Positions 1 to 64,000 of a stretch of 64,000 nucleotides of DNA are shown piece after piece; the stretch's first letter is position 1, and each line of letters begins with the position of its first letter. The stretch is from a phage. The DNA lies in assembly GCA_024683775.1 (NCBI GenBank), contig GCA_024683775.1_4106.1. One strand, given 5' to 3'. The position numbers and the translations under genes are program-made. Below the pieces are notes generated by a model. The model ran no database searches. It was not told the origin of the DNA and saw nothing but the letters and a program-made list of their open reading frames with translations.

Positions 1-79
1 TATATTATGCCAGTACTTGATAATGCTGTCAATACTTTTTTTTTACTATTCAGTACTGAAAACTATTTTTAAAAAGTAC

Positions 80-107
80 TTGTAAACTATGTTTAAAGGC
101 GTATAAT
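80..107 (+). promoter_or_regulatory. sigma70-like promoter (TTGTAA-16-TATAAT)
   Basis: -35/-10 hexamers read directly; first of two tandem promoters upstream of CDS 258. Confidence 0.6.
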
Positions 108-197
108 GTTTTACATCAGGACGGGGAACGAAATAAGTAACTTCCCGTTAAGTAGCCCAGGAGTAAGGCACACGAAAAACTCCCCTGATAAAATAGT

Positions 198-225
198 TTG
201 ACAATAGAAAGTAAAAGCGTATAAT
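198..225 (+). promoter_or_regulatory. sigma70-like promoter (TTGACA-16-TATAAT)
   Basis: Consensus -35 and -10 hexamers; about 30 nt upstream of CDS 258. Confidence 0.65.
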
Positions 226-257
226 ACTTACATCAACTACTGAATGAGGGTTACAAA

Positions 258-869
258 ATGAAAACTATCACTACTACTACTTTTGTTATGGCTTTTTCTG
301 AACTGAACGCAGAACAAAAAACGGCGGCTATCGAACTGGTTCGGGATCGTGAGCGTTCATGTGAGGATAATTTCTTTGCTGAGGGCGTTATCGAGTACTA
401 TAAAGAAACAGTACTACCAGAATACGGCATAGATGAAGCTGAATTGCAATACAGTGGTTTTTGGTCGCAAGGTGACGGTGCATCAATCAGTACTGACCAC
501 GTTGACGCAGTGAAGTTTTTACGCAAGGTAAGAGCATTAACTAAGTATCGCTCAATCCGTCACTTGCTGAATGAAGATGATTTGGCGATGAGTGTAGAAC
601 GTTCACACTCTCGCTACGCACACGAAAACACGGTAAGCGGGTACATTGAATCGGCTTACACTGATTTAACCGCAAAACAAGAAACGTTAGTTAATGAGCT
701 TGAGGAACTACTCACTGAAACTATTCGTGAATTGTCCCGCAAGTTGTACCGTGATTTAGAGAATGCATATGAGGATCAATTCACTACTGAAAACATTACG
801 GCACTGATTGAGGGTAACGAATATCAATTCAATGTTATTGATGGCGTAGTGGAATCAATCGAATATTAA
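258..869 (+). CDS. hypothetical protein (203 aa)
   Basis: Long ORF; tandem promoters and structured leader upstream; SD-like GAGGG before ATG. Confidence 0.75.
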   Translation: MKTITTTTFVMAFSELNAEQKTAAIELVRDRERSCEDNFFAEGVIEYYKETVLPEYGIDEAELQYSGFWSQGDGASISTDHVDAVKFLRKVRALTKYRSIRHLLNEDDLAMSVERSHSRYAHENTVSGYIESAYTDLTAKQETLVNELEELLTETIRELSRKLYRDLENAYEDQFTTENITALIEGNEYQFNVIDGVVESIEY

Positions 870-881
870 TTTAAAAAGTAC

Positions 882-909
882 TTGCAAACTAAGTTTAAAA
901 GCGTATAAT
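882..909 (+). promoter_or_regulatory. sigma70-like promoter (TTGCAA-16-TATAAT)
   Basis: Hexamers read directly; followed by leader hairpin GGCGGGGAATGGTTCCCCGC and RBS. Confidence 0.6.
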
Positions 910-959
910 ACTTTATATCGAGGCGGGGAATGGTTCCCCGCTCAAACGAGGATTTAAAA

Positions 960-1199
960 ATGGCTAGTACTAAAACTTACAACGGACACAAAAACAAAAC
1001 TCATTGGAATGTAAGCCTTTGGATTAATAACGGTGAGTCATTGTATCGGCTTGCACAAAGTTGCATCGCACAAAGTAGAACTAAAGATATTGCTGCGGAA
1101 TGTATGTACCGCAGATTAAAAGCCAACGGTACTACTACAACGCCGGACGGCTTTAAGTATAGCACTACTGCGATCCGTGCTGCAATGGTTGGAATGTAA
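960..1199 (+). CDS. hypothetical protein (79 aa)
   Basis: ORF; promoter, leader hairpin and SD upstream; start trimmed from track ORF 930 to ATG after SD. Confidence 0.7.
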   Translation: MASTKTYNGHKNKTHWNVSLWINNGESLYRLAQSCIAQSRTKDIAAECMYRRLKANGTTTTPDGFKYSTTAIRAAMVGM

Positions 1200-1256
1200 T
1201 ATTCAGTACTGAGATAATGGCGGGTAATAGTTCCCGCCTTTACTGAGGGTTATCTA

Positions 1257-1517
1257 ATGAGTAAAGTAATTAGCTATACAGCACTAAGCAAGACATTATC
1301 TATTAGCCAGTGCACCGATGGTTATTGGCTATTTGATGAAACGCGTGGCATGAATTTAGCCATGCGTGCAAAAACTGCTGAGGCGGCGTATCTTGAAGCA
1401 TTGGAATACTACCAGGAACGTTTAAAGGAAGTAGAAGAAGATTATAAAAGCCTCAAAGCGAAAGTAGATCATTTCGTCGGTCAATTCATCGAGGAAGACG
1501 ACGACAAACAATATTGA
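1257..1517 (+). CDS. hypothetical protein (86 aa)
   Basis: ORF; leader hairpin GGCGGGTAATAGTTCCCGCC and SD GAGGG upstream. Confidence 0.65.
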   Translation: MSKVISYTALSKTLSISQCTDGYWLFDETRGMNLAMRAKTAEAAYLEALEYYQERLKEVEEDYKSLKAKVDHFVGQFIEEDDDKQY

Positions 1518-1525
1518 AAAAGTAC

Positions 1526-1553
1526 TTGCAATTAGTTTTCAGTACTGTATAAT
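1526..1553 (+). promoter_or_regulatory. sigma70-like promoter (TTGCAA-16-TATAAT)
   Basis: Hexamers read directly; followed by leader hairpin and RBS. Confidence 0.6.
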
Positions 1554-1603
1554 GGTTTACATCAAAGGGAGAAATGGTTCTCCCTGGTAATGAGGAAAAT
1601 AAA

Positions 1604-1825
1604 ATGGCTAATATCACTACTCTTTCCCAACTGGAAGCACTGGTTAAATCTATGCGGGAACATGCCGACAAAATCGGCGTACAAGATCCAGCCGTTTGCT
1701 TCTGCGACGAATTGAATGATGATACCCTGGTAATAGCAGAAGTCCAGGACGTTTCTAACTATTCCTCGCGTTACACTGGCGGCGTAGCAAATAAAGGCGA
1801 CTTCTGTTTATACCTTACAAAATAA
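1604..1825 (+). CDS. hypothetical protein (73 aa)
   Basis: ORF; promoter, hairpin, SD AATGAGGAAA upstream; trimmed from track ORF 1574. Confidence 0.7.
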   Translation: MANITTLSQLEALVKSMREHADKIGVQDPAVCFCDELNDDTLVIAEVQDVSNYSSRYTGGVANKGDFCLYLTK

Positions 1826-1993
1826 CAACGCGGGGAGATAATAACTCCCCGTTACTTTTTCAGTACTGAATCATTTAATAGACGGATCTCGGCACCCGGT
1901 GGGTTAGTGACTGTTTCGTCTTGATGTAGTAATTATGCCAGTACTGGATGCACTTGTCAACAACTATTTTTCAAATACTTTTTATTAAAATAC

Positions 1994-2021
1994 TTGCAAT
2001 TAGTTTTTAAACGCGTATAAT
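1994..2021 (+). promoter_or_regulatory. sigma70-like promoter (TTGCAA-16-TATAAT)
   Basis: Hexamers read directly; followed by hairpin GGGGGAGCGGTTCCCC. Confidence 0.6.
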
Positions 2022-2068
2022 GTTTTGCATAGGGGGAGCGGTTCCCCTGGTAACTAAGGAATAATAAA

Positions 2069-2305
2069 ATGCTTGAACAAATCAAATCAACGTCTGCGAA
2101 TGTAACGGGAACGGTAGTACACTTTACTAGTGATGAATCGCGGGGTGTACCCTATTGTGCTGTACATGTAAACACTGAGGGTAACTACTGGTTTACGGTT
2201 TACGGATCATATTCATTTGGACGACCAGGGCATCAAAAAATTCTGGATAAAGTACAGCCAACGGGTAAAAATATCACTGCTGAAATGTTTTATAAAAAAT
2301 CATAA
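2069..2305 (+). CDS. hypothetical protein (78 aa)
   Basis: ORF; promoter, leader hairpin and SD AAGGAA upstream. Confidence 0.7.
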   Translation: MLEQIKSTSANVTGTVVHFTSDESRGVPYCAVHVNTEGNYWFTVYGSYSFGRPGHQKILDKVQPTGKNITAEMFYKKS

Positions 2306-2389
2306 AGTACTTGATAATAGTTTTTAGTACTGTATAATATTTTACATCGCAAGGGGGAGCGGTTCCCCCTGGTAACTAAGGATAATCAA

Positions 2390-2689
2390 ATGAAAATTAC
2401 AATCATCGCCCTGGCTTTATCTGTTTCCTCTTTCGCTGTTAATGCGTCATTAGATGTAAGTAGTGAAAAATTCATTCAGTGCACTGTTGCAATGACCGAT
2501 GAAAGTACTGGCGAGATTGTATTAAAGGATCTGGAGATTCAGCCGGAAGCATTTAAAAACGGCCCGTTCCATGAAGAAGACGAAAACGGTAGCACGACAA
2601 TTTATTATGATGCCAGTACTAAACGCGGTTCGGTCACTGTAATGGATACCGAGAAAGTAACTCATACCGGCGTTATTAATTGCCGTTGA
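2390..2689 (+). CDS. small secreted or periplasmic protein (99 aa, N-terminal signal-peptide-like segment)
   Basis: ORF; N-terminus MKITIIALALSVSSFAVNA is hydrophobic with an AxA-like end; promoter, hairpin, SD upstream. Confidence 0.65.
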   Translation: MKITIIALALSVSSFAVNASLDVSSEKFIQCTVAMTDESTGEIVLKDLEIQPEAFKNGPFHEEDENGSTTIYYDASTKRGSVTVMDTEKVTHTGVINCR

Positions 2690-2710
2690 TAGATACTACG
2701 GGGTAACATC

Positions 2711-2941
2711 ATGACTAAGCGAATTGTTTTACTTAACGAAAGCAGTACTACACAACTACTTAACGCCGTGCATTATGATATTGAAACGAGCGTTAATCTT
2801 ATCAGTACTGTCGTACTGTTGGACACTGGAAAGGTCGCCAATGATAAAGCGATTGCAGGTATACTAACGGATCTTGAGCCTGGTAGCAGTGCACCAATAA
2901 CGTTAAATGGTAAAGTGTTTAATATTTTACTCACTGATTAA
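2711..2941 (+). CDS. hypothetical protein (76 aa)
   Basis: ORF; SD-like GGGG before ATG; intrinsic terminator immediately downstream. Confidence 0.6.
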   Translation: MTKRIVLLNESSTTQLLNAVHYDIETSVNLISTVVLLDTGKVANDKAIAGILTDLEPGSSAPITLNGKVFNILLTD

Positions 2942-2947
2942 GTACAT

Positions 2948-2970
2948 AGCCCACCTGGTGGGCTTTTTTG
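2948..2970 (+). terminator. rho-independent terminator
   Basis: GC-rich hairpin AGCCCACC/GGTGGGCT followed by a T-run. Confidence 0.7.
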
Positions 2971-3174
2971 TTTTTGTAGTATCGTAGTACTGAGATACTT
3001 TGAAAATAGTTTTAAGAAAGTAGTTGACATTACCGCAGAAAAGCGTAGAATGTATTACATCAAGACGGGGAGCACTAAGTAGACCGCCAGTAAGTCGAAC
3101 GAAAAACTGGACACGTCGAGAAAACTTTGATACACTAATAAACGTAAACTAAACTTTAATTGAGGATTTATAAA

Positions 3175-3657
3175 ATGGCTAATGTAAAATCATTCATCAA
3201 AGCACTGGTAGCAAATGAAACTAACGTCGCGGCTGAGATCCTGGCTGAACTGGATAACGATACCATGAAAGCGGTACGCAATAATTTTAACATCGCGTAC
3301 AGTACTGCGAAAGAACTACAAGCAAATAAAGCGGCAGAAATTGAAGCGGCAAAGGCGGCCCGTGAAGCAGAACTACAAGCAACAATCGAAAGTATTCAGG
3401 CGGCAGTAGTTGGATTGGATCTGGAAGTAGTTACAGAGATGGCACAAAAAGCCCTGGCGGTTAAGTATGGGGAAGACAAGCCAGAAGTAAAAGCCAAAAA
3501 ATGGATTCAGGAACGCGTAGCGGTAGTACTGGACAACGGGGAAGAATATCTGATTCCGGTGCGTGGTAACTGCATTGCGGTAGTACTGGATGCGATTAAC
3601 TCCAGTGGTATGACTCGCGAGGAATGGATCAAAGCTCATCGCAAAGTTGAAGCATAA
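3175..3657 (+). CDS. hypothetical protein (160 aa, Ala/Glu-rich helical N-terminal half)
   Basis: ORF; SD TGAGGA upstream of ATG; trimmed from track ORF 3160. Confidence 0.7.
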   Translation: MANVKSFIKALVANETNVAAEILAELDNDTMKAVRNNFNIAYSTAKELQANKAAEIEAAKAAREAELQATIESIQAAVVGLDLEVVTEMAQKALAVKYGEDKPEVKAKKWIQERVAVVLDNGEEYLIPVRGNCIAVVLDAINSSGMTREEWIKAHRKVEA

Positions 3658-3678
3658 CAATTAAAGTACTGAATCACT

Positions 3679-3706
3679 AGCCCACTGTATAAGTGGGCTT
3701 TTTTGT
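3679..3706 (+). terminator. rho-independent terminator
   Basis: Hairpin AGCCCACT-GTATAA-GTGGGCT followed by a T-run. Confidence 0.75.
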
Positions 3707-3785
3707 GTTTATCGTTTACCATGCCACCAGCACCGCCTAGAAACGATTCTAACGCATTAAACTGATTATCTGATGCATTGCCCTA

Positions 3786-3793
3786 GCTGGTGG
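3786..3793 (+). other. Chi octamer GCTGGTGG
   Basis: Exact match read in sequence; paired with an inverted copy at 3724-3731. Confidence 0.8.
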
Positions 3794-3941
3794 CGTTAAG
3801 GCTGTAAGAACGCGATTGAGAGCGTTTAAAGTATTTTGCAAAAAGTAATAAAAAGTACTTGCACGATTAAGAGATTAGCGTATAATGTTTTACATCGAGA
3901 GGGGGAAACGGTTCTCCTTCCAAATCAAAGGAATTAAAACA

Positions 3942-4169
3942 ATGGCTATCGTAATCACTCGCGTAACTGGTACTACTGGCAATTCTTCTACTGTTGCTGT
4001 AATTACTAATAAGAAAGGTGCGGAATTGCATTTTGCAATGGATAAATGGGCCGTTAATGAGTTCGGTCAGTGGGCAAGTGTAGCATACATTGAAACCTAT
4101 CAAGTGCCGTCGATTAGTTTAACTGATTTGGGCGTTGAGCGTATCCTTTGCCTGGATGAATTAAATTAA
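3942..4169 (+). CDS. hypothetical protein (75 aa)
   Basis: ORF; promoter, hairpin GGGGGAAACGGTTCTCC and SD upstream; track start 3885 lies in the -10 box. Confidence 0.7.
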   Translation: MAIVITRVTGTTGNSSTVAVITNKKGAELHFAMDKWAVNEFGQWASVAYIETYQVPSISLTDLGVERILCLDELN

Positions 4170-4255
4170 AAAAGTACTTGCAAAGTAAATCAGATAAAGT
4201 ATAATACATTACATCAAGGGGAGAAATGGTTCTCCCTGATAATGAGGAAACTAAT

Positions 4256-4399
4256 ATGAAAACTTGTCAATGTGGTAAAAAATCTATTACTGGTTTAAAG
4301 CGGGGCGTTGCACTTTGCCAGTACCATTATAATTTACAAGTATGGGGTAAAGAATGGGCCGACCAGGTGGAAGCAGCAAAGAAAGCAAAAAGTAAGTAA
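4256..4399 (+). CDS. hypothetical small Cys-containing protein (47 aa)
   Basis: Short ORF not in track; promoter, hairpin GGGGAGAAATGGTTCTCCCC and SD AATGAGGAAA upstream. Confidence 0.5.
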   Translation: MKTCQCGKKSITGLKRGVALCQYHYNLQVWGKEWADQVEAAKKAKSK

Positions 4400-4417
4400 A
4401 ATATTATCACAGTACTA

Positions 4418-4446
4418 TTGACATAGTTTGATAGTACTGGCATAAT
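4418..4446 (+). promoter_or_regulatory. sigma70-like promoter (TTGACA-17-CATAAT)
   Basis: Hexamers read directly; the same cassette recurs near 7260, 7520 and 15450. Confidence 0.6.
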
Positions 4447-4489
4447 AGATTTTATCAAGACGACACATATTAATTTAAGGAATACTAAA

Positions 4490-4813
4490 ATGGCTAAAAC
4501 TATCATTAACACCGTTTCCCTGGCTGCAATCCGTGCAATCAATGTTGACGGTAAACGTTGGACTGATTCATATGGCAATACTTATCATTCTTGTCATGTA
4601 AGCGTTGAACTGGATAACGGTTTGAATGATCTGGCGGTTGAATCATTTACTTATGGCTATGAAGATGCATATCAACAAACGGCGTTAGATCTCTTAAAGG
4701 AATCAGTAGACGGGCTTAATACTGATGACACCTCCCTTACTCGTTTGTGCAATGATCTTAATATCCCGTTGCATTGTACTGTACAGAATGTTAAACGCAA
4801 AAAAGATCTTTAA
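4490..4813 (+). CDS. hypothetical protein (107 aa), paralog of CDS 10978
   Basis: ORF; shares RWTDSxGNTYHSC and FTYGY motifs and C-terminal KRKKD with CDS 10978. Confidence 0.7.
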   Translation: MAKTIINTVSLAAIRAINVDGKRWTDSYGNTYHSCHVSVELDNGLNDLAVESFTYGYEDAYQQTALDLLKESVDGLNTDDTSLTRLCNDLNIPLHCTVQNVKRKKDL

Positions 4814-4893
4814 TTAGCTTTACTTTATGCAGATACTTTGATATAGTGTCTGCATAGGGGAAAGAAATTAAATTAACTTAAGAGGAACGTATA

Positions 4894-5163
4894 ATGAAAA
4901 ATATCAGTACTTTAATCGACGCAGGTACACATGTTCGGCGGTCTATGGTTGCAACCAGTACTACAAAACAAGTACCAAGCGGTTATCTTGTATTTGTGCA
5001 CGATGGTAAACTCCTGGAACGTTCAATCAATTTTGATGTTAAAAACAATTGCCGTTTTATTATCTTTAAGCGTGAGCAATATAAAATTGATTTACCAGCA
5101 AAGCCCATAAGCGGGGCGTACAACGTGCAATCATTGTTTGAACGTCAACCATACACCTATTAA
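4894..5163 (+). CDS. hypothetical protein (89 aa)
   Basis: ORF; SD AAGAGGAA upstream. Confidence 0.65.
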   Translation: MKNISTLIDAGTHVRRSMVATSTTKQVPSGYLVFVHDGKLLERSINFDVKNNCRFIIFKREQYKIDLPAKPISGAYNVQSLFERQPYTY

Positions 5164-5214
5164 TCAAAACATCGTTAGCGGTCGATTTAGGCCGCTTATA
5201 TTGGGGATTATACC

Positions 5215-5487
5215 ATGAACGTTAATCAAGTACTGAATGAGATCGAAAGCATCATTAAACCGATGAAGCGTACTGATGCTATGTTAACACCGGAAGAATG
5301 CCGCCTTTATGAGCGTTACAGCGTCGAACAAGTCCAGGCGATGGCTATGGCTACCCCAGCCGTTAAACCGCCTGAGAATGCGTTACAGGACGTTACAGGG
5401 GATTATATCATCAATCCAGTACTAGGGAAGATGGCTGCAATCACCGAAGATCAACAAGACTACTTAAGCCAGTACTTAAAAGGTTAA
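5215..5487 (+). CDS. hypothetical protein (90 aa)
   Basis: ORF; SD-like GGGG before ATG. Confidence 0.6.
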   Translation: MNVNQVLNEIESIIKPMKRTDAMLTPEECRLYERYSVEQVQAMAMATPAVKPPENALQDVTGDYIINPVLGKMAAITEDQQDYLSQYLKG

Positions 5488-5492
5488 TTAAT

Positions 5493-5702
5493 ATGCTTAC
5501 TGTACAGGATAAGATCGACATCTTAAAGGTTAATATGTATGTGATTGATGCAGTACCTGGTAAAGTATTTGCATACGATGACAGTACTGTAAGCGATTTC
5601 TACTATAGCCAGGCCGTGGGGGATCTTTCTGTACAGTCGGTTATTGAAAACGTAGTTAATGCAGCGTATGAGCATTTACTTTCAAATAGTACTTGCAATT
5701 AG
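5493..5702 (+). CDS. hypothetical protein (69 aa)
   Basis: ORF 5 nt after previous stop; likely co-translated. Confidence 0.55.
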   Translation: MLTVQDKIDILKVNMYVIDAVPGKVFAYDDSTVSDFYYSQAVGDLSVQSVIENVVNAAYEHLLSNSTCN

Positions 5703-5771
5703 TTTTTAAACGCGTATAATGTTTTACATGAAGGGGAGAAATGATTCTCCCCACTAATTAAGGAATATGAA

Positions 5772-5918
5772 ATGAAAGCATCAAAAAAGAGTACTAACAA
5801 GAAAGCACGTTCAACCTTAGATGGGGTATTCCCTTTACGTTTCGTTGATGAAGTAGTTTCCTACCCGCCGGGCCTTACTCCTGAGATGGTAGAAAGTTTG
5901 CGTAAATCTAAAAAATAG
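5772..5918 (+). CDS. hypothetical small basic protein (48 aa)
   Basis: Short ORF not in track; promoter, hairpin and SD AAGGAA upstream. Confidence 0.5.
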   Translation: MKASKKSTNKKARSTLDGVFPLRFVDEVVSYPPGLTPEMVESLRKSKK

Positions 5919-5999
5919 TACTTGCAATTAGTTTTTAGTACTGTATAATGTTTTACATGAAGGGGAGAAATGATTCTCCCCAATAACAGGAGAAACAAA

Positions 6000-6382: not shown

Positions 6383-6384
6383 AA

Positions 6385-6478: not shown

Positions 6479-6593
6479 AGTATTGAGTACTGAAAACTAT
6501 TTGATAAAAAGTACTTGCAAACTATCTCAATAAGCGTATAATGTTTTACATCGAAAGGGGAAACGGTTTCCCCTGGTAATAAGGAAACGAATC

Positions 6594-57690: not shown

Positions 57691-57692
57691 CT

Positions 57693-57986: not shown

Positions 57987-58266
57987 TGATTCGAATCTAA
58001 CAGGTTATTTTTTGCAAGAATCAATGATCAAATTCAGTGAACATTTTCCAGTACTAGATGGTGTGGAGATGTGGCATGTAAAACCACTCTTCCACACTTT
58101 CAGTAAAGAGCACAAAATGTTATTGACTGAGGCTTGTAAATCGAATAAAATATGCCAAATCAAGATTGGTGTAAATGTCTACAAAGGATTAGTCATCTTT
58201 TTTGACAACAACAGCAACTACTTTTATATTGTTAAGGAGCATTACGTTGACAAATACAAATACTAA
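57979..58266 (+). CDS. hypothetical protein (95 aa)
   Basis: ORF overlapping previous stop; trimmed from TTG-start track ORF 57958. Confidence 0.55.
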   Translation: MSDDSNLTGYFLQESMIKFSEHFPVLDGVEMWHVKPLFHTFSKEHKMLLTEACKSNKICQIKIGVNVYKGLVIFFDNNSNYFYIVKEHYVDKYKY

Positions 58267-58861
58267 TACATACTTTCGTTATCTTCGCCTAGGGCTTTCC
58301 CTACGCCCAATCCGTGGTAAGTGTGATTCACTTGCTGATTTGGATTATGCATATGCATTACATTGTGATGGTGTTCAATATGTATTAGGTGACTATGGCA
58401 CATTCGAAGAATCCAATGACAGTTCAGAAATTATTGCTGGTGTTGCTAACCTTAACAACATTGCCAATAGTTCTCGTCATGAAATCGTTCTTGAAATTCA
58501 GAACTTCATTGAGAAAAATACTGGCAAGCGTACATGGTCATATGTCGGTACTGATGCACAAATGTCAATCGCATTTGGTAACGAAGATGGTTATGTAGCA
58601 CAACTTATTATGGATTTTGAATCAGAAGAGAAGTTCCAAGAATACAAAGAAAAAATCATCCAATCCTTATTGCAAATGGGTATTCCTGAAGATCGTATGC
58701 CTGAAATTCAAAGCATTGATGAGTTTGTTCTTATCCCATCTGATGAAAAATATGATGCGATGTTCACAGCACTGAACATTCCTGGTGTAGTGGTTGAGTA
58801 CTTCGATGATGGTGATAGTGACATTTACCTAGATCTCGACGACGATGATGACGATGAATAA
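58202..58861 (+). CDS. hypothetical acidic protein (up to 219 aa; start uncertain)
   Basis: Long ORF with poly-Asp C-terminus; track start is TTG 65 nt inside previous gene; no in-frame ATG until far downstream. Confidence 0.5.
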   Translation: MTTTATTFILLRSITLTNTNTNTYFRYLRLGLSLRPIRGKCDSLADLDYAYALHCDGVQYVLGDYGTFEESNDSSEIIAGVANLNNIANSSRHEIVLEIQNFIEKNTGKRTWSYVGTDAQMSIAFGNEDGYVAQLIMDFESEEKFQEYKEKIIQSLLQMGIPEDRMPEIQSIDEFVLIPSDEKYDAMFTALNIPGVVVEYFDDGDSDIYLDLDDDDDDE

Positions 58862-58867
58862 TACATA

Positions 58868-58896
58868 TAGCCCGACATAAGTTCGGGCTATTTTTG
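58868..58896 (+). terminator. rho-independent terminator
   Basis: Hairpin TAGCCCGAC-ATAAG-TTCGGGCTA followed by TTTTT. Confidence 0.75.
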
Positions 58897-58907
58897 TAAG
58901 GGGAAAT

Positions 58908-59177
58908 ATGAATTACAAACATATACAATTCACTTATATGGAATTATTTAAATTACACCACAATCACCGAAGTACTAACACAATTAATAAAAATGCGTTT
59001 ACCCATAAAATATGGTCAAATTATCTAGAAGAATTACGTGAGTATTTTGTTAATACTGAAATTGTCATTAATGGAAAAAAACGAAAGATACTTAGAGTAG
59101 ATAGTTTCGGTGGTAGATTAGTACTTTCATATAAATTTGATAACGACCTATTCTCTGTGGATTTGGTGAATATATGA
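58908..59177 (+). CDS. family C protein (89 aa)
   Basis: N-terminal motif HIQFTYMELF; SD AAGGGGAAAT upstream. Confidence 0.65.
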   Translation: MNYKHIQFTYMELFKLHHNHRSTNTINKNAFTHKIWSNYLEELREYFVNTEIVINGKKRKILRVDSFGGRLVLSYKFDNDLFSVDLVNI

Positions 59178-59434
59178 ATTATAAAGATTTCCAATTAACA
59201 TTCAAGTGCATTCGTGACCTAGCAAATAAAAATAATAGTATATTTTTAGAAGATACATGTAATGAAATGATTAATACTGTGCGTGAGAGGATTAAAGAAA
59301 AATTCAGTACTGTAATTATTAATAACGATCATGCAGAATTTTCAGATATAATCATTAAGCTCGATGGTAAAGTAGAGGTACAGTTCTACACTGATTTTGG
59401 ATTTACGAGTGTTCCTCTGGAGATATTCCCTTGA
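59174..59434 (+). CDS. family C protein (86 aa)
   Basis: N-terminal motif DFQLTFK; ATGA overlap. Confidence 0.65.
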   Translation: MNYKDFQLTFKCIRDLANKNNSIFLEDTCNEMINTVRERIKEKFSTVIINNDHAEFSDIIIKLDGKVEVQFYTDFGFTSVPLEIFP

Positions 59435-59742
59435 AATTAAATTTGAATGATGTTCAATTCACATATAAAAATATATACGGTTTGTATGACATGTATCTTT
59501 TTAGTGGGAAGATTGGTGAACATGTAGAATCAAAAGAATCACCATTTATTCATAATTACTATGATTACTTAGATTCTATTGCTGAATATATAAAAAAGAA
59601 TTACAGTACTTACACTGATGGCGATGATATATTCGAATATTCAGGTGTCAAATCTTATCAAGGTATTATCCATGTAGAATTTCTTGAAAAAACTGATAGG
59701 GAATTTATGGAGATCAAAGTTTTGAAGTTGACAGACCTATAA
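59431..59742 (+). CDS. family C protein (103 aa)
   Basis: N-terminal motif DVQFTYKNIY; overlap. Confidence 0.65.
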   Translation: MKLNLNDVQFTYKNIYGLYDMYLFSGKIGEHVESKESPFIHNYYDYLDSIAEYIKKNYSTYTDGDDIFEYSGVKSYQGIIHVEFLEKTDREFMEIKVLKLTDL

Positions 59743-59752
59743 GGATTGACAT

Positions 59753-60064
59753 ATGAATCTTAATGATATACAATTCACATACAAATTTTTGTATATCCAA
59801 TACGCTACGGTTGATGCTGGAGAATATCTCTACGGTGAAATCTATCGTTCGGTATGGATAAAGTTTTTGGATGAATTACATGAATATTACCATGATTTGT
59901 GTATAGTTCGTGATAATAAAATATACAAATTCCGCGATATTGTTAGTCATAGCGGTAAGCTACGATTGGAATTAAGTACTGATAGTGATGTTGATTGGAT
60001 TGGTGTAAATTTACTGGAGTTGGAGAATGAAAAACAACTTAAAGGAAATACAAGTATTTTATAA
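59753..60064 (+). CDS. family C protein (103 aa)
   Basis: N-terminal motif DIQFTYKFLY; SD AAGGATTGA upstream. Confidence 0.65.
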   Translation: MNLNDIQFTYKFLYIQYATVDAGEYLYGEIYRSVWIKFLDELHEYYHDLCIVRDNKIYKFRDIVSHSGKLRLELSTDSDVDWIGVNLLELENEKQLKGNTSIL

Positions 60065-60311
60065 ATTCTTATACTTGTCATATGTAAAAGATGAGTACTA
60101 TGAAAGTGTGTATTATTTTTTATGGCAACATTACCGTACTATAGTAAGAGATTTATATATAGGAAAATCTATCATATCCAATGGTGAAAAATGTATATGT
60201 ACTGATGTTGTTAGTTTTAATGGTTCTTTAACACTGTGTTTCAGATGCGATAATAATAGTGGGTCATTTTCATTAAACGTATATCAGTTAGAAGGAATAA
60301 ATTTTGAATAA
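60027..60311 (+). CDS. family C protein (94 aa)
   Basis: N-terminal motif EIQVFYKFLY; SD GGAGTTGGAGA upstream; overlaps previous gene. Confidence 0.6.
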   Translation: MKNNLKEIQVFYKFLYLSYVKDEYYESVYYFLWQHYRTIVRDLYIGKSIISNGEKCICTDVVSFNGSLTLCFRCDNNSGSFSLNVYQLEGINFE

Positions 60312-60504
60312 ATGTCCATATTGCAACAGTACTCAATTAGCTCGTTTCCGTTTAGATTCAGACTGGGCCACTGGTGCTGGTGATTTCTTTCCCATCAATG
60401 ATGATTCGGAATACACTGAAGAACAGCACAAAGATTTCGATAAATCATGGCGACCTGACATTGAGTGCATTTATTGCCTTAATTGTGAGCGTATCCATGA
60501 CTAA
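60304..60504 (+). CDS. zinc-ribbon protein (66 aa)
   Basis: Two CxxC pairs (CPYC ... CLNC) about 45 residues apart. Confidence 0.6.
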   Translation: MNKCPYCNSTQLARFRLDSDWATGAGDFFPINDDSEYTEEQHKDFDKSWRPDIECIYCLNCERIHD

Positions 60505-60760
60505 AGCTGAACTGATCGTGCAAACACTGCGTTTATTGAGGGATTTAGATATCCCACGCATGGATGTGAAACTTGAAGATATCTACATTGAATCTCTTAG
60601 TGAAGATTACACCGATACCGTAATGATGCTGAATGACGTGCTTTATCGTATAGATAGCATCAGTCGTCTTGGAAGTACTTTAAAAGTGAATATGGAAAGA
60701 GTTGATAAACTTTACGTACATATATATAGTCTACCCATTTCAATATTAAACTATAGATGA
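60497..60760 (+). CDS. hypothetical protein (87 aa)
   Basis: ORF overlapping previous stop; trimmed from track ORF 60374. Confidence 0.5.
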   Translation: MTKAELIVQTLRLLRDLDIPRMDVKLEDIYIESLSEDYTDTVMMLNDVLYRIDSISRLGSTLKVNMERVDKLYVHIYSLPISILNYR

Positions 60761-61047
60761 ATATTATATTGATACAAAAAACATATGCTATACTGATGAA
60801 AGAATATGATAAAATTTATGATGAAAAGTGTAGTGCAAGTCATAATATGTATAAATTCATTACTCAAGAGTACAGGGATTATATATATGCTGTGTTAGTG
60901 GGTAGATATTTCAGTACTAGAAAATACCCAAAACTTCAAATAGTTGATGTTTCTTTTTATTTCAATGGTCATATTACTATTCATAGTTTAGACCAAGATT
61001 CAACAACGTACTTAAACTTTTCATTTGATGAGGTAACATTTTTATGA
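60757..61047 (+). CDS. hypothetical protein (96 aa)
   Basis: ORF; ATGA overlap. Confidence 0.6.
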   Translation: MNIILIQKTYAILMKEYDKIYDEKCSASHNMYKFITQEYRDYIYAVLVGRYFSTRKYPKLQIVDVSFYFNGHITIHSLDQDSTTYLNFSFDEVTFL

Positions 61048-61217
61048 GAACAGTATTTTTTATCTGGAGTCTTTTTTCATTGGCAGTACTGACAGCTTCA
61101 GGTGCTTATTCCTTTTTAACAATGAACACATGGTATGTTAATTTACTATTCCCAATTGTTGGTGTTGGTTTAGGATTTACTTTACATAGTGTTTGTAAGG
61201 ATTTTAATGGCAAATAA
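61044..61217 (+). CDS. small membrane protein (57 aa, two hydrophobic segments)
   Basis: ORF not in track; ATGA overlap with previous stop. Confidence 0.45.
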   Translation: MRTVFFIWSLFSLAVLTASGAYSFLTMNTWYVNLLFPIVGVGLGFTLHSVCKDFNGK

Positions 61218-61491
61218 ATCGAATGAAGTACTTGTTGCTGAAACAATGAAGATGGTTTATGCCATAACAACTAGTAATGATTTGTCTTACCCAATTAAGT
61301 CCAAGTTGAGGGATATAACTCTTCAGGTTATACAGCAGTACTACAAATCTAAACACAAAAGTATTATTAGTGTTTATCGTGATTATGAAAGGATTCGTAT
61401 TCTGTTCTGGAACAAGAACCGAGTTCGTGAGGAATGTGATATAGAGAACTTTAAATTTGAGAATCTTTATTGTTACAAAGCGGGACAATAG
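61207..61491 (+). CDS. hypothetical protein (94 aa)
   Basis: ORF; SD TAAGGA upstream; trimmed from track ORF 61189. Confidence 0.55.
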   Translation: MANKSNEVLVAETMKMVYAITTSNDLSYPIKSKLRDITLQVIQQYYKSKHKSIISVYRDYERIRILFWNKNRVREECDIENFKFENLYCYKAGQ

Positions 61492-61549
61492 CTCAAGTAG
61501 TGATATAATATTGGATGAGGAACAATAACTAACACAAGGAGTGTGTAAA

Positions 61550-62278
61550 GTGCTTGACCGTATCCGTTTCGCTACAGAGATGGCGAATGAATTAAACATG
61601 GCAAATTTTCAAATGTTAACATCAGTGATGGCTGAACATGCATGTGCTTATTCTGTAAGTGGTGTGCAGTGCGGTCAGGAGAATATGTTAGCAGATGTAT
61701 ATAGCGAAGTTCAAAGTAAACAATACAGTGTAAAGACGTACAAGGATAAGTTCGTTAGTCTTTATATGAATGAAGACATTGCAGAAGACCGCAAATATAC
61801 TGATTTTATTATTGAACGAAGAGTATCAGGTGTATCCAACCCAAATGCTGACAGTACTACAGTATTTGAAGAAGTACTTCAAGATATATATGAAAATGAA
61901 TTGAAAAGTAAGAATCATTACAATGTACGTGAAACTAACACAGTGCTCTTGGGATATGATGAAGACGATCAATATTATTATTTCCGTATGACTGAAGTTC
62001 CTTTTGAATATAAATCACCAAGTACTACTGCTGTAAAAGAATTTACCGAGAAAAGCAAGAACTACAAGAAACATGAAGGCAACCGTTGTAGTATAAATGG
62101 TTATAATGAAGATGGTGTTCATATATATGAATGGGTTCATCCTAATTGCCAGACATATACCCGTTGCTTGAAGAAACGTTATAATTTAGAAGACAATGAA
62201 TCCTTCTACTTTAAAGTTAAGAAACAAGGCTATACTCGCCCTGAAGATTCAGAATTGATGGGTATGGTATATTTCTAA
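61550..62278 (+). CDS. hypothetical protein (242 aa; probable GTG start)
   Basis: Long ORF; SD AAGGAG 8 nt before GTG at 61550; first in-frame ATG only at 61583. Confidence 0.6.
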   Translation: MLDRIRFATEMANELNMANFQMLTSVMAEHACAYSVSGVQCGQENMLADVYSEVQSKQYSVKTYKDKFVSLYMNEDIAEDRKYTDFIIERRVSGVSNPNADSTTVFEEVLQDIYENELKSKNHYNVRETNTVLLGYDEDDQYYYFRMTEVPFEYKSPSTTAVKEFTEKSKNYKKHEGNRCSINGYNEDGVHIYEWVHPNCQTYTRCLKKRYNLEDNESFYFKVKKQGYTRPEDSELMGMVYF

Positions 62279-62287
62279 GGAACTGTT

Positions 62288-62569
62288 ATGGATTTTTACC
62301 TACACACATGGTCATACGAACAATACATTACATTATATCTTGAGATTATTAATACTGATCCCAGATATGGTTGTGATTTTGCTGATATTATAAAAGAGTA
62401 TGCAGATGAGTTTGAGTTTGTATATCTTGGCTCTGACCTATTCGTGAAGAGTGTAGGTAAAACCGGACGCATCACTGAGATTGATTATGATACTGTTAGT
62501 GTGAATTTCTATGTTGATTTTCCTTGTGATGGCGTTGATGGTGTATATTGTCTATATGAAATAATTTAA
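62288..62569 (+). CDS. hypothetical protein (93 aa)
   Basis: ORF; SD TAAGGAA upstream; terminator downstream. Confidence 0.65.
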   Translation: MDFYLHTWSYEQYITLYLEIINTDPRYGCDFADIIKEYADEFEFVYLGSDLFVKSVGKTGRITEIDYDTVSVNFYVDFPCDGVDGVYCLYEII

Positions 62570-62576
62570 ATTTTGA

Positions 62577-62600
62577 GGCCAGCGTTTGCTGGTCTTTTTT
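62577..62600 (+). terminator. rho-independent terminator
   Basis: Hairpin GGCCAGC-GTTT-GCTGGTC followed by TTTTTT. Confidence 0.7.
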
Positions 62601-62613
62601 CGCAGGTACAAAG

Positions 62614-62916
62614 ATGATTAGTATAGATTTAATTAACAGTACTATAAAGTTGTTGGCTGATGTAGTGAGAGAATCCAATGGAACTGTATACACATCAATG
62701 TATAAAATCTTTGAACGATACATCAAGGATTGTAATATATCCTTATATGGACTGGCTGTTGATATAGACGACCACTATGAAATTAATACTTCATATAAAA
62801 CTGGAATGTTAATTGGTATTAATATAAAGATGGGATATTTTCCTTATTACTGTATAGGATTACCAGATAGTACTATGGTAGATTACCCAGCCAGTACTAT
62901 TAAACTAAGAGGATAG
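62614..62916 (+). CDS. hypothetical protein (100 aa)
   Basis: ORF after terminator; SD-like CAGG upstream. Confidence 0.55.
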   Translation: MISIDLINSTIKLLADVVRESNGTVYTSMYKIFERYIKDCNISLYGLAVDIDDHYEINTSYKTGMLIGINIKMGYFPYYCIGLPDSTMVDYPASTIKLRG

Positions 62917-62920
62917 AATT

Positions 62921-63610
62921 TTGATTAAAGATTTAGATAGAATTTTATATGTACTGAGGGGTGTAATTACATTACAACCACAGGTTAATCGTATGGAGAG
63001 AGCCTTTGAATTAAAATCAAGAGAAACTCCATATTCACATATATCAAATGTAGTTGGATCATTCAGTGCTGAAGACTCGCCTTATGATATTTGTGTATGT
63101 GAAGTACAGCCAAGTTCGGATCTTGGATTTGCTATTTTTGATAAAAATCAAAATCTAATTAGTATGTTTCAGTGCAATAATCCTTTTTGGAAAACATGCC
63201 TGTATCCAGAGTGGGCTATGCTTGATCCAACCAAGAGTTCCATTAAAGTATATGACTCTAAAAATGATGAAGTCGTTATTGATTTGGATGAGTCAATGTC
63301 AGAGGAAGAACACTTTCAGCTAATGATGATGCGTGCTATGCCTGAATACAATGCAATGATTAACACTGTGCAATACATTAAGGATACCATGCCATCGTTG
63401 CGTACACATGAGTTTTGTCATCCGGTATTGTATGAACATTTGGATTTAGATTTCAGTACTATTAAATTTAAAGATAATGTTATTAATTACATTCAAGAGA
63501 ATGTTAAATTTGATTTTATTAGTACAATGACAAATAATCCAAATACTAATTTCAGGCATCAGTACAATGAATCTTTGTCTGGTGGTCGTGATACAACTTG
63601 GTGGAAATAA
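62921..63610 (+). CDS. hypothetical protein (229 aa) with family B-like motif
   Basis: Long ORF; motif EEEHFQLMMMRA resembles the family B core. Confidence 0.6.
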   Translation: MIKDLDRILYVLRGVITLQPQVNRMERAFELKSRETPYSHISNVVGSFSAEDSPYDICVCEVQPSSDLGFAIFDKNQNLISMFQCNNPFWKTCLYPEWAMLDPTKSSIKVYDSKNDEVVIDLDESMSEEEHFQLMMMRAMPEYNAMINTVQYIKDTMPSLRTHEFCHPVLYEHLDLDFSTIKFKDNVINYIQENVKFDFISTMTNNPNTNFRHQYNESLSGGRDTTWWK

Positions 63611-63611
63611 T

Positions 63612-63875
63612 ATGAATATCCAAGATAGATTGCAATTGTTGCACACACTTGAAGAAGCTGCTTTTGAACTTGTTAATAAAATTGCACAAGAACTCCCAAA
63701 AGGAACCAAAGTTCGTGTTCGTGAAATGGATTATTTAACGGGAAAAATTGATGAAAAAGTTCTAACAGTGATCAAAGTAACATACTATGAATCAGAGTTA
63801 TCAATTCAATGTAATTCAGATAATGGTTACGTTTCCTACTATGGCACAGATGTAGATATAGAGGTAATAAAATGA
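63612..63875 (+). CDS. hypothetical protein (87 aa)
   Basis: ORF 1 nt after previous stop; SD TGGTGGAAATA upstream; trimmed from track ORF 63567. Confidence 0.6.
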   Translation: MNIQDRLQLLHTLEEAAFELVNKIAQELPKGTKVRVREMDYLTGKIDEKVLTVIKVTYYESELSIQCNSDNGYVSYYGTDVDIEVIK

Positions 63876-64000
63876 CCCTTTTACAAATATATGAAGATTT
63901 AATGCACTTATGTAATACTCGTGAGGCTTTCTTTTATGTGGATCATAAAAGTCCTGCTGGTGGAACATATCGTGTATTCAGTTATCGTCTAGCATCATAT
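63872..64000 (+). CDS. rnlA: RNA ligase 1, T4 RnlA-like, N-terminal fragment (continues past window end)
   Basis: Translation MTLLQIYEDLMHLCNTREAFFYVDHKSPAGGTYRVFSYRLASY matches the T4 RnlA N-terminus as recalled (..NLMELC...FFYSDD...GRTYRIFSYNYASY); ATGA overlap. Confidence 0.8.
   Translation, partial: MTLLQIYEDLMHLCNTREAFFYVDHKSPAGGTYRVFSYRLASY
63956..63963 (+). other. Chi octamer GCTGGTGG
   Basis: Exact match inside the RNA ligase gene. Confidence 0.8.

Follow-up and report, generated by a model that had tools for sequence, protein, structure and literature searches.

A hyper-abundant AGTACT palindrome and its one-sided variants in an Asteriusvirus jumbo coliphage

What keeps hundreds of copies of one palindromic hexamer, AGTACT, in a phage genome, and why are two blocks of that genome free of it? 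We addressed this question in a 64,000-nt stretch of DNA (the window), which belongs to an Asteriusvirus (121Q/PBECO4-type) jumbo coliphage. Counts were compared with 100 dinucleotide-preserving shuffles and with a first-order Markov model. We also scanned the 357-kb complete genome of vB_Ec-M-J, which is 95% identical to the window and has 21-kb terminal repeats (annotated at 1-21525, with the right edge mapping at ~17555 in the window), and the loci around the capsid gene assigned to 121Q, GAP32, CBB, BF, fHe-Yen9-04 and RaK2. Host density was taken from one 50-kb sample of E. coli K-12. The features of the window are collected in Table 1.

Table 1. Sequence features of the window, with positions counted from its first letter
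Feature	Position	Strand	Description
AGTACT, 249 copies	1..64000	.	extended form hAGTACTd
Part of left direct terminal repeat	1..17424	+	small early genes, each with sigma70-like promoter
Example early promoter, paired sites	2306..2339	+	AGTACT-TGATAA-N8-AGTACT-GTATAAT
Desert A, from terminal-repeat boundary	17425..22929	+	24 tandem ~70-aa paralogues (array A)
Island	22930..24997	+	13 AGTACT in 2.07 kb (6.3 per kb), nearly all coding
Desert B	24998..33220	+	AGTACT 0, TGTACT 0
AGTACT zone resumes	33221..64000	+	120 AGTACT, 3.9 per kb
Phage-type N6-adenine DNA methyltransferase gene (PF05869)	56636..57157	+	Dam-family

Abundance and conservation of AGTACT

AGTACT is the most frequent of all hexamers in the window, with 249 copies against 16.7 ± 3.7 in the shuffled sequences (maximum 26) and 17.3 under the Markov model, a 14.4-fold excess. 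The over-representation proposed in an earlier note on this DNA is thus stronger than was stated there, and the six or so copies that it placed in the first 600 bp lie at positions 12, 52, 75, 394, 410 and 489. The commonest octamer form is CAGTACTG (49 copies). The base before the word (C106/A65/T60/G17) mirrors the base after it (G110/T64/A61/C13), and these symmetric flanks suggest recognition at the DNA level. Beyond these positions the flanks of the 249 window sites hold no information; a longer repeat, copied many times, is therefore not the source of the sites.

The vB_Ec-M-J genome contains 1125 copies vs 117 expected (983 vs 111 when non-redundant). Their density is 2-3 per kb throughout and rises to a maximum toward both genome ends, reaching ~7 per kb in the terminal repeats, and only two large gaps are free of the word. 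The spacing is near-Poisson and slightly regular, genes on the + and - strands are alike, and there is neither a preference relative to gene starts nor, outside the terminal repeat, any positional peak. By comparison, the E. coli K-12 sample has 0.22 copies per kb vs 2.6-7 in the phage, so that host DNA is ~12-30 times poorer in the word. From the same phage genome almost every other palindrome with G/C in it has been purged, and 23 6-bp palindromes and GCGC are absent.

The enrichment, which the earlier note had rightly seen in the window, has a genome-wide and clade-wide extent that had gone unseen. It is common to the RaK2, GAP32, CBB, Serratia phage BF and Yersinia phage fHe-Yen9-04 genera, reaches 5.5-8 fold in the capsid-gene loci, and is missing in relatives with 64-69% capsid-protein identity. 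Within a genus, 65-83% of sites are conserved, where the flanks predict 43-51% (p about 1e-12). Between genera, 60-70% of positions are unshared and the density is retained. Since positions turn over while density is kept, selection is ongoing.

Selection on coding sequence and the promoters of the terminal repeat

About 75% of the window sites are intragenic. The 187 ORF-internal copies occupy all three frames, as the earlier note had described (75 as AGT-ACT, 43 as xAG-TAC-Txx and 69 as xxA-GTA-CTx), and the remainder comprises 59 intergenic copies and 3 across an ORF edge. All gene classes and both gene orientations carry the word, at 2-7 per kb. Coding copies number 188, vs 53 ± 6 after synonymous-codon shuffling, about 29 when codons are redrawn from desert codon usage and about 23 after whole-codon shuffling. 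AGT-ACT occurs 75 times, vs 17.8 expected from Ser-Thr dipeptides and codon usage. The dipeptides themselves are in excess: Ser-Thr (121 vs 62 expected, with 52 of the Thr-Ser control), Val-Leu (139 vs 77) and Gln-Tyr (60 vs 31). AGTACT thus overrides codon choice and even dipeptide content. Together with site conservation above the flanks and the density kept across genera, this distortion bears out the proposal of selection on nucleotides and not on protein. The earlier note would have given up its claim on a count within 2-fold of the null, or on an excess confined to promoters with no codon bias; the count excess and the codon bias dispose of both. A word that shapes hundreds of protein sequences must matter to the phage.

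The promoter contexts quoted earlier do exist in the first 17.4 kb, at the -35 (AGTAC-TTGCAA or AGTACT-A-TTGACA) and at the -10 (AGTAC-TG-TATAAT). This part of the terminal repeat carries 116 copies (6.7 per kb), 57 of them non-coding, with 13.5 per kb of non-coding DNA vs 4.5 per kb of coding DNA. Paired promoter sites like the example in Table 1 recur at 4411/4433, 7254/7276, 7516/7538 and 9318/9338, and pair spacings cluster at 20-24 bp and also at 16 bp. The word is optional even here, as otherwise identical promoters without any copy exist. With 187/249 copies intragenic, it does not hold the fixed position upstream of genes of a sigma70 element.

Such pairs, 20-24 bp apart and bracketing -35/-10 at this non-coding density, would suit a symmetric dimeric phage protein that binds the duplex as a global regulator or architectural factor, coating the DNA and the early promoters, with the deserts as operons escaping binding. 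The palindromic core, the symmetric flanks and the ability of a dimeric TetR-family protein of E. coli, SlmA, to read the AGTACT core agree with this. Nevertheless, we consider it unlikely, as most sites are intragenic and, beyond the terminal repeat, unrelated to gene starts; promoters outside the repeat lack AGTACT; and the 49 ORFs called in the terminal-repeat part of the window include no helix-turn-helix protein. Such a binder also leaves unexplained a half-broken word, AGTACA, that is 11-fold enriched, maintained with turnover and confined to one orientation per block, as described below. As a separate observation, the -35/-10 placement in these promoters fits a duplex-binding regulator better than the Chi-like reading considered in the last section.

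Two deserts with opposed one-sided variants

The absence of AGTACT from array A (desert A), with TGTACT present, was noticed in the earlier note; the second and larger gap, desert B, and its filling by AGTACA were missed. Desert A contains 9 TGTACT (1.2 expected) and a single AGTAC, as AGTACA. Its preferred form, CTGTACTG, corresponds to the word of desert B as its reverse complement. Roughly half the TGTACT copies fall at a homologous Ala-Val-Leu position of the paralogues. The polarity of desert A is read from 6-9 sites per genome only, partly homologous paralogue positions. Desert B contains 44 AGTACA, all on the + strand (3.9 expected, an 11-fold enrichment), distributed over the three frames as 15/14/14 with 1 intergenic. 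GTACA accounts for 74/85 of its GTAC words and GTACT occurs once, and none of its 49 AGTACN has T at the last position. The 43 coding AGTACA compare with 16.7 ± 3.4 when synonymous codons are shuffled and with 5.8 in codon-shuffled sequence; Val-Gln occurs 24 times vs 5.9 expected, and GTA-CAx is used 21 times vs 0 for GTA-CTx. The one-sided variant in the gaps is actively maintained and itself distorts protein sequence.

The result is a one-sided layout, with TGTACT to the left and AGTACA to the right of a ~2-kb palindrome-rich island. The island holds more members of the array-A and phrog_13866 families, as well as a single sigma70-like promoter (~24490-24530); the GC skew of four-fold degenerate sites adds no independent evidence that an origin lies there. 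Where the AGTACT zone resumes, + strand AGTACA is still raised (52 vs 16 TGTACT) and falls off with distance. Over the whole genome, the enrichment of AGTACA on the sense strand exceeds that on the antisense strand ~1.5-2 times.

The opposed layout around the island recurs in three diverged lineages, the window, 121Q and Turkey5, with strict orientation in each. AGTACA/TGTACT counts are 41/0 in desert B and 0/6 in desert A of 121Q, and 27/1 and 0/8, respectively, in Turkey5. The desert block is 70-89% identical in 121Q (blastn pieces), and that of Turkey5 gives no blastn alignment to the window. AGTACA sites also turn over: 15/29 aligned sites are conserved, and 121Q, with its total of 41, keeps the density. 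The first 50 kb of CBB show no polar blocks; these are restricted to an Asteriusvirus-specific insert and limited to ~14 kb. A different evolutionary origin of array A, which the earlier note had listed as a possibility, is not supported: the paralogue families span the motif territories, with each member carrying the local flavour of the word, and the gaps, with their maintained one-sided variant (Val-Gln, above), persist in 121Q and Turkey5.

The sense-strand AGTACA of desert B and the following 20 kb, and the genome-wide sense enrichment, might point to a signal in mRNA, with AGUACU/AGUACA as a nuclease, stability or binding site. We regard this as highly improbable: symmetric flanks have no RNA rationale, sites upstream of a -35 fall outside that promoter's transcript, and the word of desert A lies on the antisense strand.

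The closest known phenomenon, as outlined in the abstracts on cyanobacterial HIP1 (PMC4390886; PMC5861425), invites the view that a word-recognizing methyltransferase and biased repair make the sites as a by-product and not as a signal. One-base deviants of AGTACT are indeed skewed toward outer positions, as in HIP1, and the phage encodes both an m5C methyltransferase and the Dam-family PF05869 enzyme, whose gene adjoins a cytidylyltransferase gene conservatively in Asteriusvirus, CBB and GAP32. The PF05869 enzyme is a candidate modifier of AGTACT. Biased repair would deplete one-step precursor words, but the deamination neighbours are not depleted (AGTATT 1.49 and AATACT 1.16 times expectation); the single depleted neighbour is AGGACT/AGTCCT (0.52). 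A search for a Vsr homologue found none. Furthermore, a homologue of the m5C enzyme occurs in the unrelated coliphage muut, which has 0 AGTACT vs 12 expected in 41 kb, and the cytosine methylation reported for RaK2 is at CpG (PMC3622015). Finally, repair that acts on the whole genome cannot have spared 14 kb throughout the divergence of the lineages, with turnover elsewhere, nor have built a different word there. Hence we find such a process very unlikely.

A proposed strand-oriented word and its known counterparts

We propose that positive selection keeps AGTACT as a DNA signal throughout the genomes of RaK2-like jumbo phages, and that this signal is built from an oriented unit and acts in a Chi-like control; jointly, these claims have a probability of roughly 0.35. 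We infer that the functional unit is a strand-oriented word, roughly CAGTAC(W)G, and not the duplex palindrome. The palindrome would supply this unit on both strands simultaneously and thus work in both directions. The blocks beside the left terminal repeat would tolerate one orientation each, CTGTACTG left of the island and CAGTACAG right of it, which suggests a reader that tracks DNA directionally or reads one strand. The direction of the arrow is ambiguous, as the intact unit may be CAGTAC or GTACTG, and origin-like and terminus-like readings are thus both possible.

A preferred start site of the phage primase-helicase would also be strand-oriented, the palindrome serving forks both ways and the one-sided words marking a fixed fork direction. 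As a primase word it would be exceptionally long and would therefore need seeding along the genome. The primases of T7, T4 and E. coli (DnaG) read short lagging-strand-template words (GTC, GTT, CTG), and CAGTA and ACTG contain GTA and CTG. The opposed polarity of the blocks fits this idea, and so does the T4-like replisome of the phage, for which annotation and the CBB paper give a primase of the DnaG type and a DnaB-like helicase. Yet the idea explains neither why the other strand excludes the word nor why terminal repeats and promoters are densest in it, the skew does not support an origin, and we know of no primase that requires a 6-8 nt word; we judge it decidedly unlikely.

As to the role of the word, for which the earlier note listed a protein-binding site and a modification or nicking target as candidates, our first guess is that it controls the replisome or acts in the manner of Chi. 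It can be speculated that a phage-encoded helicase-nuclease, or a recombination-replication machine working from DNA ends, takes it as a control or 'self' mark; by annotation, a relative encodes SbcCD-like nuclease subunits, several exonucleases, helicases and UvsX/UvsY. The word would spare phage DNA and render it recombinogenic, the top density would lie in the terminal repeats, which must recombine, and word-poor host DNA would be left unprotected. The island might be a fixed entry point, such as an origin or terminus, or the place of a programmed break. The fuller proposal, that RaK2-like jumbo phages discriminate self from host DNA through an oriented word, a helicase-nuclease or replisome reader and a programmed entry point, is more doubtful; in it, the two-way palindrome would saturate the genome, and one-way words would flank the entry point beside the terminal repeat. 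If the reader does control a nuclease or replisome, this would account for the distinction between an unmodified 350-kb genome and the DNA of the host. We found no description of the AGTACT signal in the searchable literature on RaK2-like phages and, as far as that literature shows, it would be without precedent among viruses as a hyper-abundant palindrome under selection. It could serve as a diagnostic signature of, and an engineering constraint for, therapeutic jumbo phages.

Among known systems, the SlmA-binding sequence of E. coli, GTGAGTACTCAC, shares the central AGTACT core and is read by a dimeric TetR-family protein (Tonthat et al. 2011, PMC3020112). SlmA requires G1, T2 and a purine as the third base, whereas position -1 in the phage is C, then A/T, with G strongly disfavoured. 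No match to GT[GA]AG[TC][AG]CT[TC]AC was found in the window or in the 357 kb of vB_Ec-M-J, and we rejected the word as an SlmA-binding sequence. The target of ScaI/Eco255I-type restriction (AGT^ACT) is the same hexamer. Restriction pressure would leave it under-represented, as in muut, which avoids it completely; a 9-14 fold excess is the opposite outcome, in a genome that otherwise deletes palindromes.

We regard AGTACT as a phage counterpart of a highly iterated palindrome, exemplified by HIP1 (GCGATCGC) of cyanobacteria (Elhai 2015, PMC4390886; Xu, Lawrence and Durand 2018, PMC5861425). As their abstracts present it, HIP1 is likewise a short palindrome, hyper-abundant genome-wide, with its abundance kept across related genomes, although the reported over-representation is 15-300 fold vs 9-14 fold here. 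The many-fold genome-wide excess of AGTACT, its coding selection and its site conservation above background are those of this class. In the abstract of Elhai (PMC4390886), a cognate methyltransferase for the word or its core is associated with HIP; m5C and Dam-family enzymes are present here, and a cognate pairing is a candidate only. HIP1 belongs to a cyanobacterial lineage and AGTACT, an A+T-rich hexamer or octamer, to a phage clade. Unlike HIP1, AGTACT shows no repair-type depletion of neighbouring words, sits in a palindrome-purging genome and has strictly one-sided, oppositely oriented territories, which the HIP1 abstracts do not describe. These territories are an experimental handle that HIP1 does not obviously offer, predicting direction-dependent behaviour over about 8 kb.

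Chi (E. coli GCTGGTGG, B. subtilis AGCGG) and KOPS are over-represented oriented words that mark 'self' for a translocating enzyme. AGTACT shares the excess over host or foreign DNA, and its opposed one-sided blocks, over ~14 kb, may behave like polar words of this type. It differs from the host's Chi word, its main form is palindromic and hence directionless, whereas known Chi sites are non-palindromic, and the wrong orientation is absolutely excluded here, compared with a skew in Chi and KOPS. If the reading of self DNA is true, these phages would have reinvented the Chi logic with a word that other coliphages avoid as a restriction site.

AGTACT excess and its target

The closest group to the window in megablast searches is the E. 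coli jumbo phages of Asteriusvirus (121Q, PBECO4, slurp01 and phAPEC6), and the records that match best are vB_Ec-M-J (95.6% identical over the first 8 kb), fEgEco12 and WPEC5. Whole-genome counts were made on the complete vB_Ec-M-J record (378,573 bp). Its annotated direct terminal repeat of 21,525 bp ends at about window position 17,555, and window position 1 lies at about position 2,125 of that genome, inside the repeat. Our own ORF call retained 171 ORFs in the window, all on the + strand and covering 89% of it; neither an Rfam family nor a tRNA was found there by scanning. The words under study are the palindrome AGTACT, the one-sided AGTACA and TGTACT, GAGTACTC, and the octamers CAGTACTG, CAGTACAG and CTGTACTG.

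AGTACT is the top-ranking hexamer of the window, with 249 copies against 16.7 +/- 3.7 (maximum 26) in dinucleotide-preserving shuffles, or 14.4 times the first-order Markov expectation. Flank information is restricted to positions -1 (C106/A65/T60/G17) and +1 (G110/T64/A61/C13) and is symmetric, which defines hAGTACTd as the extended word, preferentially CAGTACTG; the copies do not belong to a longer repeat. The intragenic sites (187 of 249) occupy all three frames (75 AGT-ACT, 43 xAG-TAC-Txx and 69 xxA-GTA-CTx), and 59 sites are intergenic. The coding count of 188 falls to 53 +/- 6 after within-gene synonymous-codon shuffling, to ~29 when codons are redrawn from the usage of the AGTACT-free deserts, and to ~23 after whole-codon shuffling. 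Given the Ser-Thr dipeptides and codon usage, 17.8 AGT-ACT pairs are expected against the 75 found, and the reverse pair ACT-AGT is at expectation (7 vs 7.7). The dipeptides themselves are enriched in the window ORFs in one order: Ser-Thr (121 vs 62 expected; Thr-Ser control 52), Val-Leu (139 vs 77; Leu-Val control 68) and Gln-Tyr (60 vs 31; Tyr-Gln control 27).

The target of this selection is the DNA and not the protein, as the earlier note had proposed from an excess of the word in promoters and in all three frames: the count is far from the null, and the enrichment is neither confined to promoters nor free of codon bias. AGTACT is thus a real, strongly non-random and biologically maintained feature. 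Its treatment as a property of the window was too narrow, as the excess is genome-wide and clade-wide and includes one-sided territories.

Every small gene in the terminal-repeat part (1-17.4 kb) is served by a sigma70-like promoter, and in many of these promoters AGTACT abuts the -35 box (AGTACT-A-TTGACA or AGTAC-TTGCAA), the extended -10 box (AGTAC-TG-TATAAT), or both; some similar promoters there carry no AGTACT. The density in this part is 13.5 per kb in non-coding and 4.5 per kb in coding DNA. A role as a general promoter element was ruled out by the mostly intragenic location, the lack of an upstream peak outside the repeat, and promoters outside the repeat (TTGACA...TGTGATATAAT) that lack the word. 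Paired promoter sites are spaced by 20-24 or 16 bp. LexA-type boxes and SlmA sites were both rejected. LexA-type boxes share the half-sites TACTG/CAGTA with the word, but by inspection CTGT-N8-ACAG requires an 18-bp spacing, which differs from both spacings found; SlmA sites share the core, but the GT-purine flank is missing and no site matched. When the 49 terminal-repeat ORFs were searched with Pfam for candidate DNA-binding proteins, no helix-turn-helix protein was found; the matches were a DksA-type zinc finger, a GNAT acetyltransferase, a ParE-like domain and DUFs.

In the related phage PA5oct, a 39-kb terminal repeat is packed with early-transcribed genes and host RNA polymerase is used (PMC7318152). 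RpoD-like, divergent and T4-late-like promoters were reported for CBB, with the AGTACT word not described (PMC5259590). Many early genes of the terminal repeat also carry a hairpin in the 5' leader, preceded directly by a conserved TACAT that lies 3' of the -10 box. Two near-identical intergenic modules each hold two sigma70-like promoters with a GGACGGGGAAC...CCCGTT hairpin between them, and may thus encode a small RNA.

Coordinates of features in the window and in compared phage genomes
Feature	Sequence	Coordinates	Strand	Remarks
Desert A	window	17,425-22,929		no AGTACT; holds array A
Island	window	22,930-24,997		between the deserts
Desert B	window	24,998-33,220		no AGTACT
Array-A family (phrog_4148, LGTNYQE motif, ~70 aa)	window	17653-23341	+	tandem run of 26; overlapping start/stop codons
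Two further phrog_4148 paralogues	window	23310-23594; 24282-24497	+	near tandem run; family total at least 28
Leader hairpin GGGGAG(N4-8)CTCCCC	window	2350-2385; 6560-6590; 7000-7025		examples within 1-17400; no Rfam match
Intergenic modules, ~170 nt	window	88-257; 10174-10343		two copies
Second promoter class, outside terminal repeat	window	40710-40745; 53700-53735; 61505-61520		extended -10 is TGTGATATAAT; clear TTGACA in 1/3, AGTACT in 0/3
Third-largest AGTACT gap (2.25 kb)	vB_Ec-M-J	65363-67613		'endonuclease' gene EcMJ_170 and neighbour
RCC1-like array	vB_Ec-M-J	333206-351685	-	14 paralogues and one adjoining virion structural gene
m5C methyltransferase gene	UE-S1 (ON568341.1)	50779-52605		appears split over 1.8 kb, possibly by an inserted element
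m5C methyltransferase match	JNE01 (OR670491.1)	236826-237452		limited to residues 61-269
AGTACT-avoiding region	muut (NC_052657.1)	27776-68708		146-kb coliphage, unrelated

Distribution in the genome and the clade

The vB_Ec-M-J genome contains 1,125 AGTACT sites against 117 expected. They are spread through the genome at 2-3 per kb; either copy of the repeat reaches ~7 per kb, and the density is also raised in the adjoining unique DNA. Genes on the + strand hold 2.64 sites per kb and those on the - strand 2.21. In E. coli K-12, 50 kb taken as a sample gave 11 sites (0.22 per kb). Outside the repeat and the gaps, spacing is near-Poisson and slightly more even (CV 0.92 vs 1.00 +/- 0.034 for random placement), and the sites show no pattern around gene starts apart from a dip at the ribosome-binding site. 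Only two large gaps occur in the whole genome, the deserts A and B of the window, with chance probabilities of 7e-7 and 7e-10 at 2.57 sites per kb. The third-largest gap may represent DNA that is mobile or was acquired recently.

To survey the clade, we used IMG/VR loci around major capsid protein homologues, retaining the 43 of 80 that are ~10 kb or longer. AGTACT is enriched 5.5-8 fold in contigs assigned to 121Q, GAP32, CBB, BF (Serratia), fHe-Yen9-04 (Yersinia) and RaK2, with capsid identities of 80-99%. Enrichment is ~3-fold in a few intermediate relatives and absent in those with 64-69% capsid identity. The first 50 kb of CBB hold 266 sites. Within the genus, 65-83% of aligned sites are conserved, compared with 43-51% predicted from their flanks (pooled p ~1e-12); between genera conservation is ~1.5-2.5 times expectation. 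Positions of 60-70% of sites are not shared between genera and ~2 sites per kb are kept in every genome, indicating turnover with maintained density. This is the pattern expected if the number of sites outweighs each position.

AGTACT is the single upward outlier among palindromes of vB_Ec-M-J, most of the others having been purged from this genome. In 357 kb of that genome GCGC is missing (0 vs 216 expected), as are 23 of the 64 six-base palindromes (e.g., CCATGG, 0 vs 51, and TGGCCA, 0 vs 46), and CTGCAG and CAGCTG occur once each against 43 expected. The window itself lacks 27 palindromic hexamers altogether. The unrelated coliphage muut lacks AGTACT (0 vs 12 expected in 41 kb), and thus the word is a restriction-avoided site elsewhere among coliphages; CTGCAG, CAGCTG and GGATCC are also absent from this region.

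The Asteriusvirus m5C methyltransferase was rejected as the driver: a 50% identical homologue is encoded by AGTACT-avoiding muut, UE-S1 and JNE01 have split or truncated forms of the gene, and RaK2 methylates CpG (PMC3622015). The DNA of vB_Ec-M-J was cut as expected by all ten enzymes used, including EcoRI, NsiI, SpeI, ClaI, NruI and HindIII (PMC13070987), and is thus not globally hypermodified.

One-sided words in the two deserts

The main new result is that one-sided words fill the AGTACT gaps. Desert B contains no AGTACT or TGTACT and 44 copies of AGTACA against 3.9 expected (frames 15/14/14 and one intergenic), with the same flank preference as the palindrome, giving CAGTACAG. Its 49 AGTACN words end in A (44), C (3) or G (2), and none ends in T (p ~3e-8); GTACA accounts for 74 of 85 GTAC. 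Synonymous shuffling lowers the 43 coding copies to 16.7 +/- 3.4, and codon shuffling lowers them to 5.8. The dipeptides Val-Gln (24 vs 5.9 expected; Gln-Val control 1) and Val-His (10 vs 3.3) are over-represented. AGT-ACA is the codon pair of 15 of the 17 Ser-Thr dipeptides, and GTA-CAx occurs 21 times with no GTA-CTx. The shuffling, dipeptide and codon biases together show that AGTACA is itself under DNA-level selection. Beyond the right edge of desert B, the excess of AGTACA on the + strand fades over ~20 kb.

Desert A, which starts at the repeat boundary, lacks AGTACT, as the earlier note had observed for array A, and contains 9 TGTACT against 1.2 expected, mostly as CTGTACTG, which is the desert-B octamer on the opposite strand; AGTAC occurs once. 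Since the array-A paralogues carry about half of these copies at one homologous position, Ala-Val-Leu, desert A is weaker evidence. Between the deserts, 13 AGTACT sites are present in the 2.07-kb island, where a search for an iteron-like array found only paralogue-derived repeats.

The three-part layout recurs in two diverged relatives. Of 29 desert AGTACA sites aligned between the window and 121Q, 15 are conserved and none has turned into AGTACT, so the one-sided word shows turnover as well.

One-sided words and AGTACT in the three-part layout
Genome	Left block, TGTACT/AGTACA	Island, AGTACT	Right block, AGTACA/TGTACT	Alignment
Window	9/1	13	44/0	
121Q	6/0	16	41/0	70-89% similar in blastn pieces
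Turkey5	8/0 over 2.9 kb	19	27/1 and one AGTACT	block unalignable by blastn

Members of phrog_4148 are located in desert A and the island, and those of phrog_13866/15629 in the island, desert B and beyond, each with the local form of the word; at one aligned position the island copy has AGTACT and the desert-B copy AGTACA. The motif type therefore tracks genome position and not gene ancestry. Territory boundaries are located within ORFs. A foreign origin of the deserts is contradicted by paralogues across territories, the persistence of the gaps in diverged lineages and the active maintenance of AGTACA; on the same grounds, a separate evolutionary origin of array A, offered by the earlier note, is not supported.

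Compared with CBB, Asteriusvirus has ~27 kb extra between the terminal repeat and a conserved Dam-like methyltransferase/cytidylyltransferase pair (CBB 22.5-33.5 kb vs vB_Ec-M-J 21.5-60.6 kb). Array A, the island, desert B and more paralogue arrays all lie in this block; array A was found in Asteriusvirus records only (tblastn, 36 records). CBB lacks the block and has no one-sided territory in its first 50 kb. In the RCC1-like array of vB_Ec-M-J, + strand TGTACT (sense-strand AGTACA) occurs 25 times against 10 expected at normal AGTACT density, either as a sense-strand codon effect or as part of a genome-scale polarity.

Possible function and likeness to known words

Restriction enzymes, type II methyltransferases, symmetric dimers and other readers of the six-base duplex would see AGTACA as a non-site, leaving its 11-fold oriented enrichment unexplained; this bears on the rival reading of AGTACT as the site of a dimeric regulator. 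Exclusion of the palindrome alone predicts both one-sided forms in both blocks, contrary to observation. The simplest reading is that the functional unit would be a strand-oriented word, about CAGTAC(W)G. The palindrome would then be an economical placement of this unit on both strands, and near the repeat boundary a single direction would be permitted on either side of the island. Such a unit implies a reader that tracks DNA directionally or reads one strand; priming sites and an RNA signal are rival readings. CAGTAC and GTACTG are equally possible as the intact unit, and so the arrows either diverge from or converge on the island. Four-fold degenerate-site GC skew does not settle their direction, and its use as support for an origin in the island was rejected, the genome-wide skew being too noisy and Turkey5 inconsistent.

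We tentatively propose, with low confidence (roughly 0.3), that AGTACT may act as a Chi-like control sequence, or as a mark of self DNA, for a helicase-nuclease or a recombination-replication machine of the phage. The suggestion comes from a density that is highest near the genome ends and in the repeats, which have to recombine, from the 12-30 fold contrast with host DNA, and from the polar variants. The opposed one-sided territories constrain the mechanism and make it testable.

In the open literature on phages, jumbo phages and this clade, we found no relevant mention of AGTACT; among the clade papers found, its sole occurrence is a primer in an unrelated RaK2 depolymerase paper. With respect to restriction avoidance, AGTACT in this phage is the opposite case, being enriched. 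A further rival is a methylation-repair process like that of HIP1, the highly iterated palindrome of cyanobacteria. VSP-like biased repair was rejected, as neither of the neighbour words AGTATT and AATACT is depleted and a tblastn search with Vsr of E. coli gave no match; the test for a repair signature thus failed. HIP1 (PMC4390886; PMC5861425) is the nearest phenomenon, and the two words have in common hyper-abundance, selection and an unknown function.
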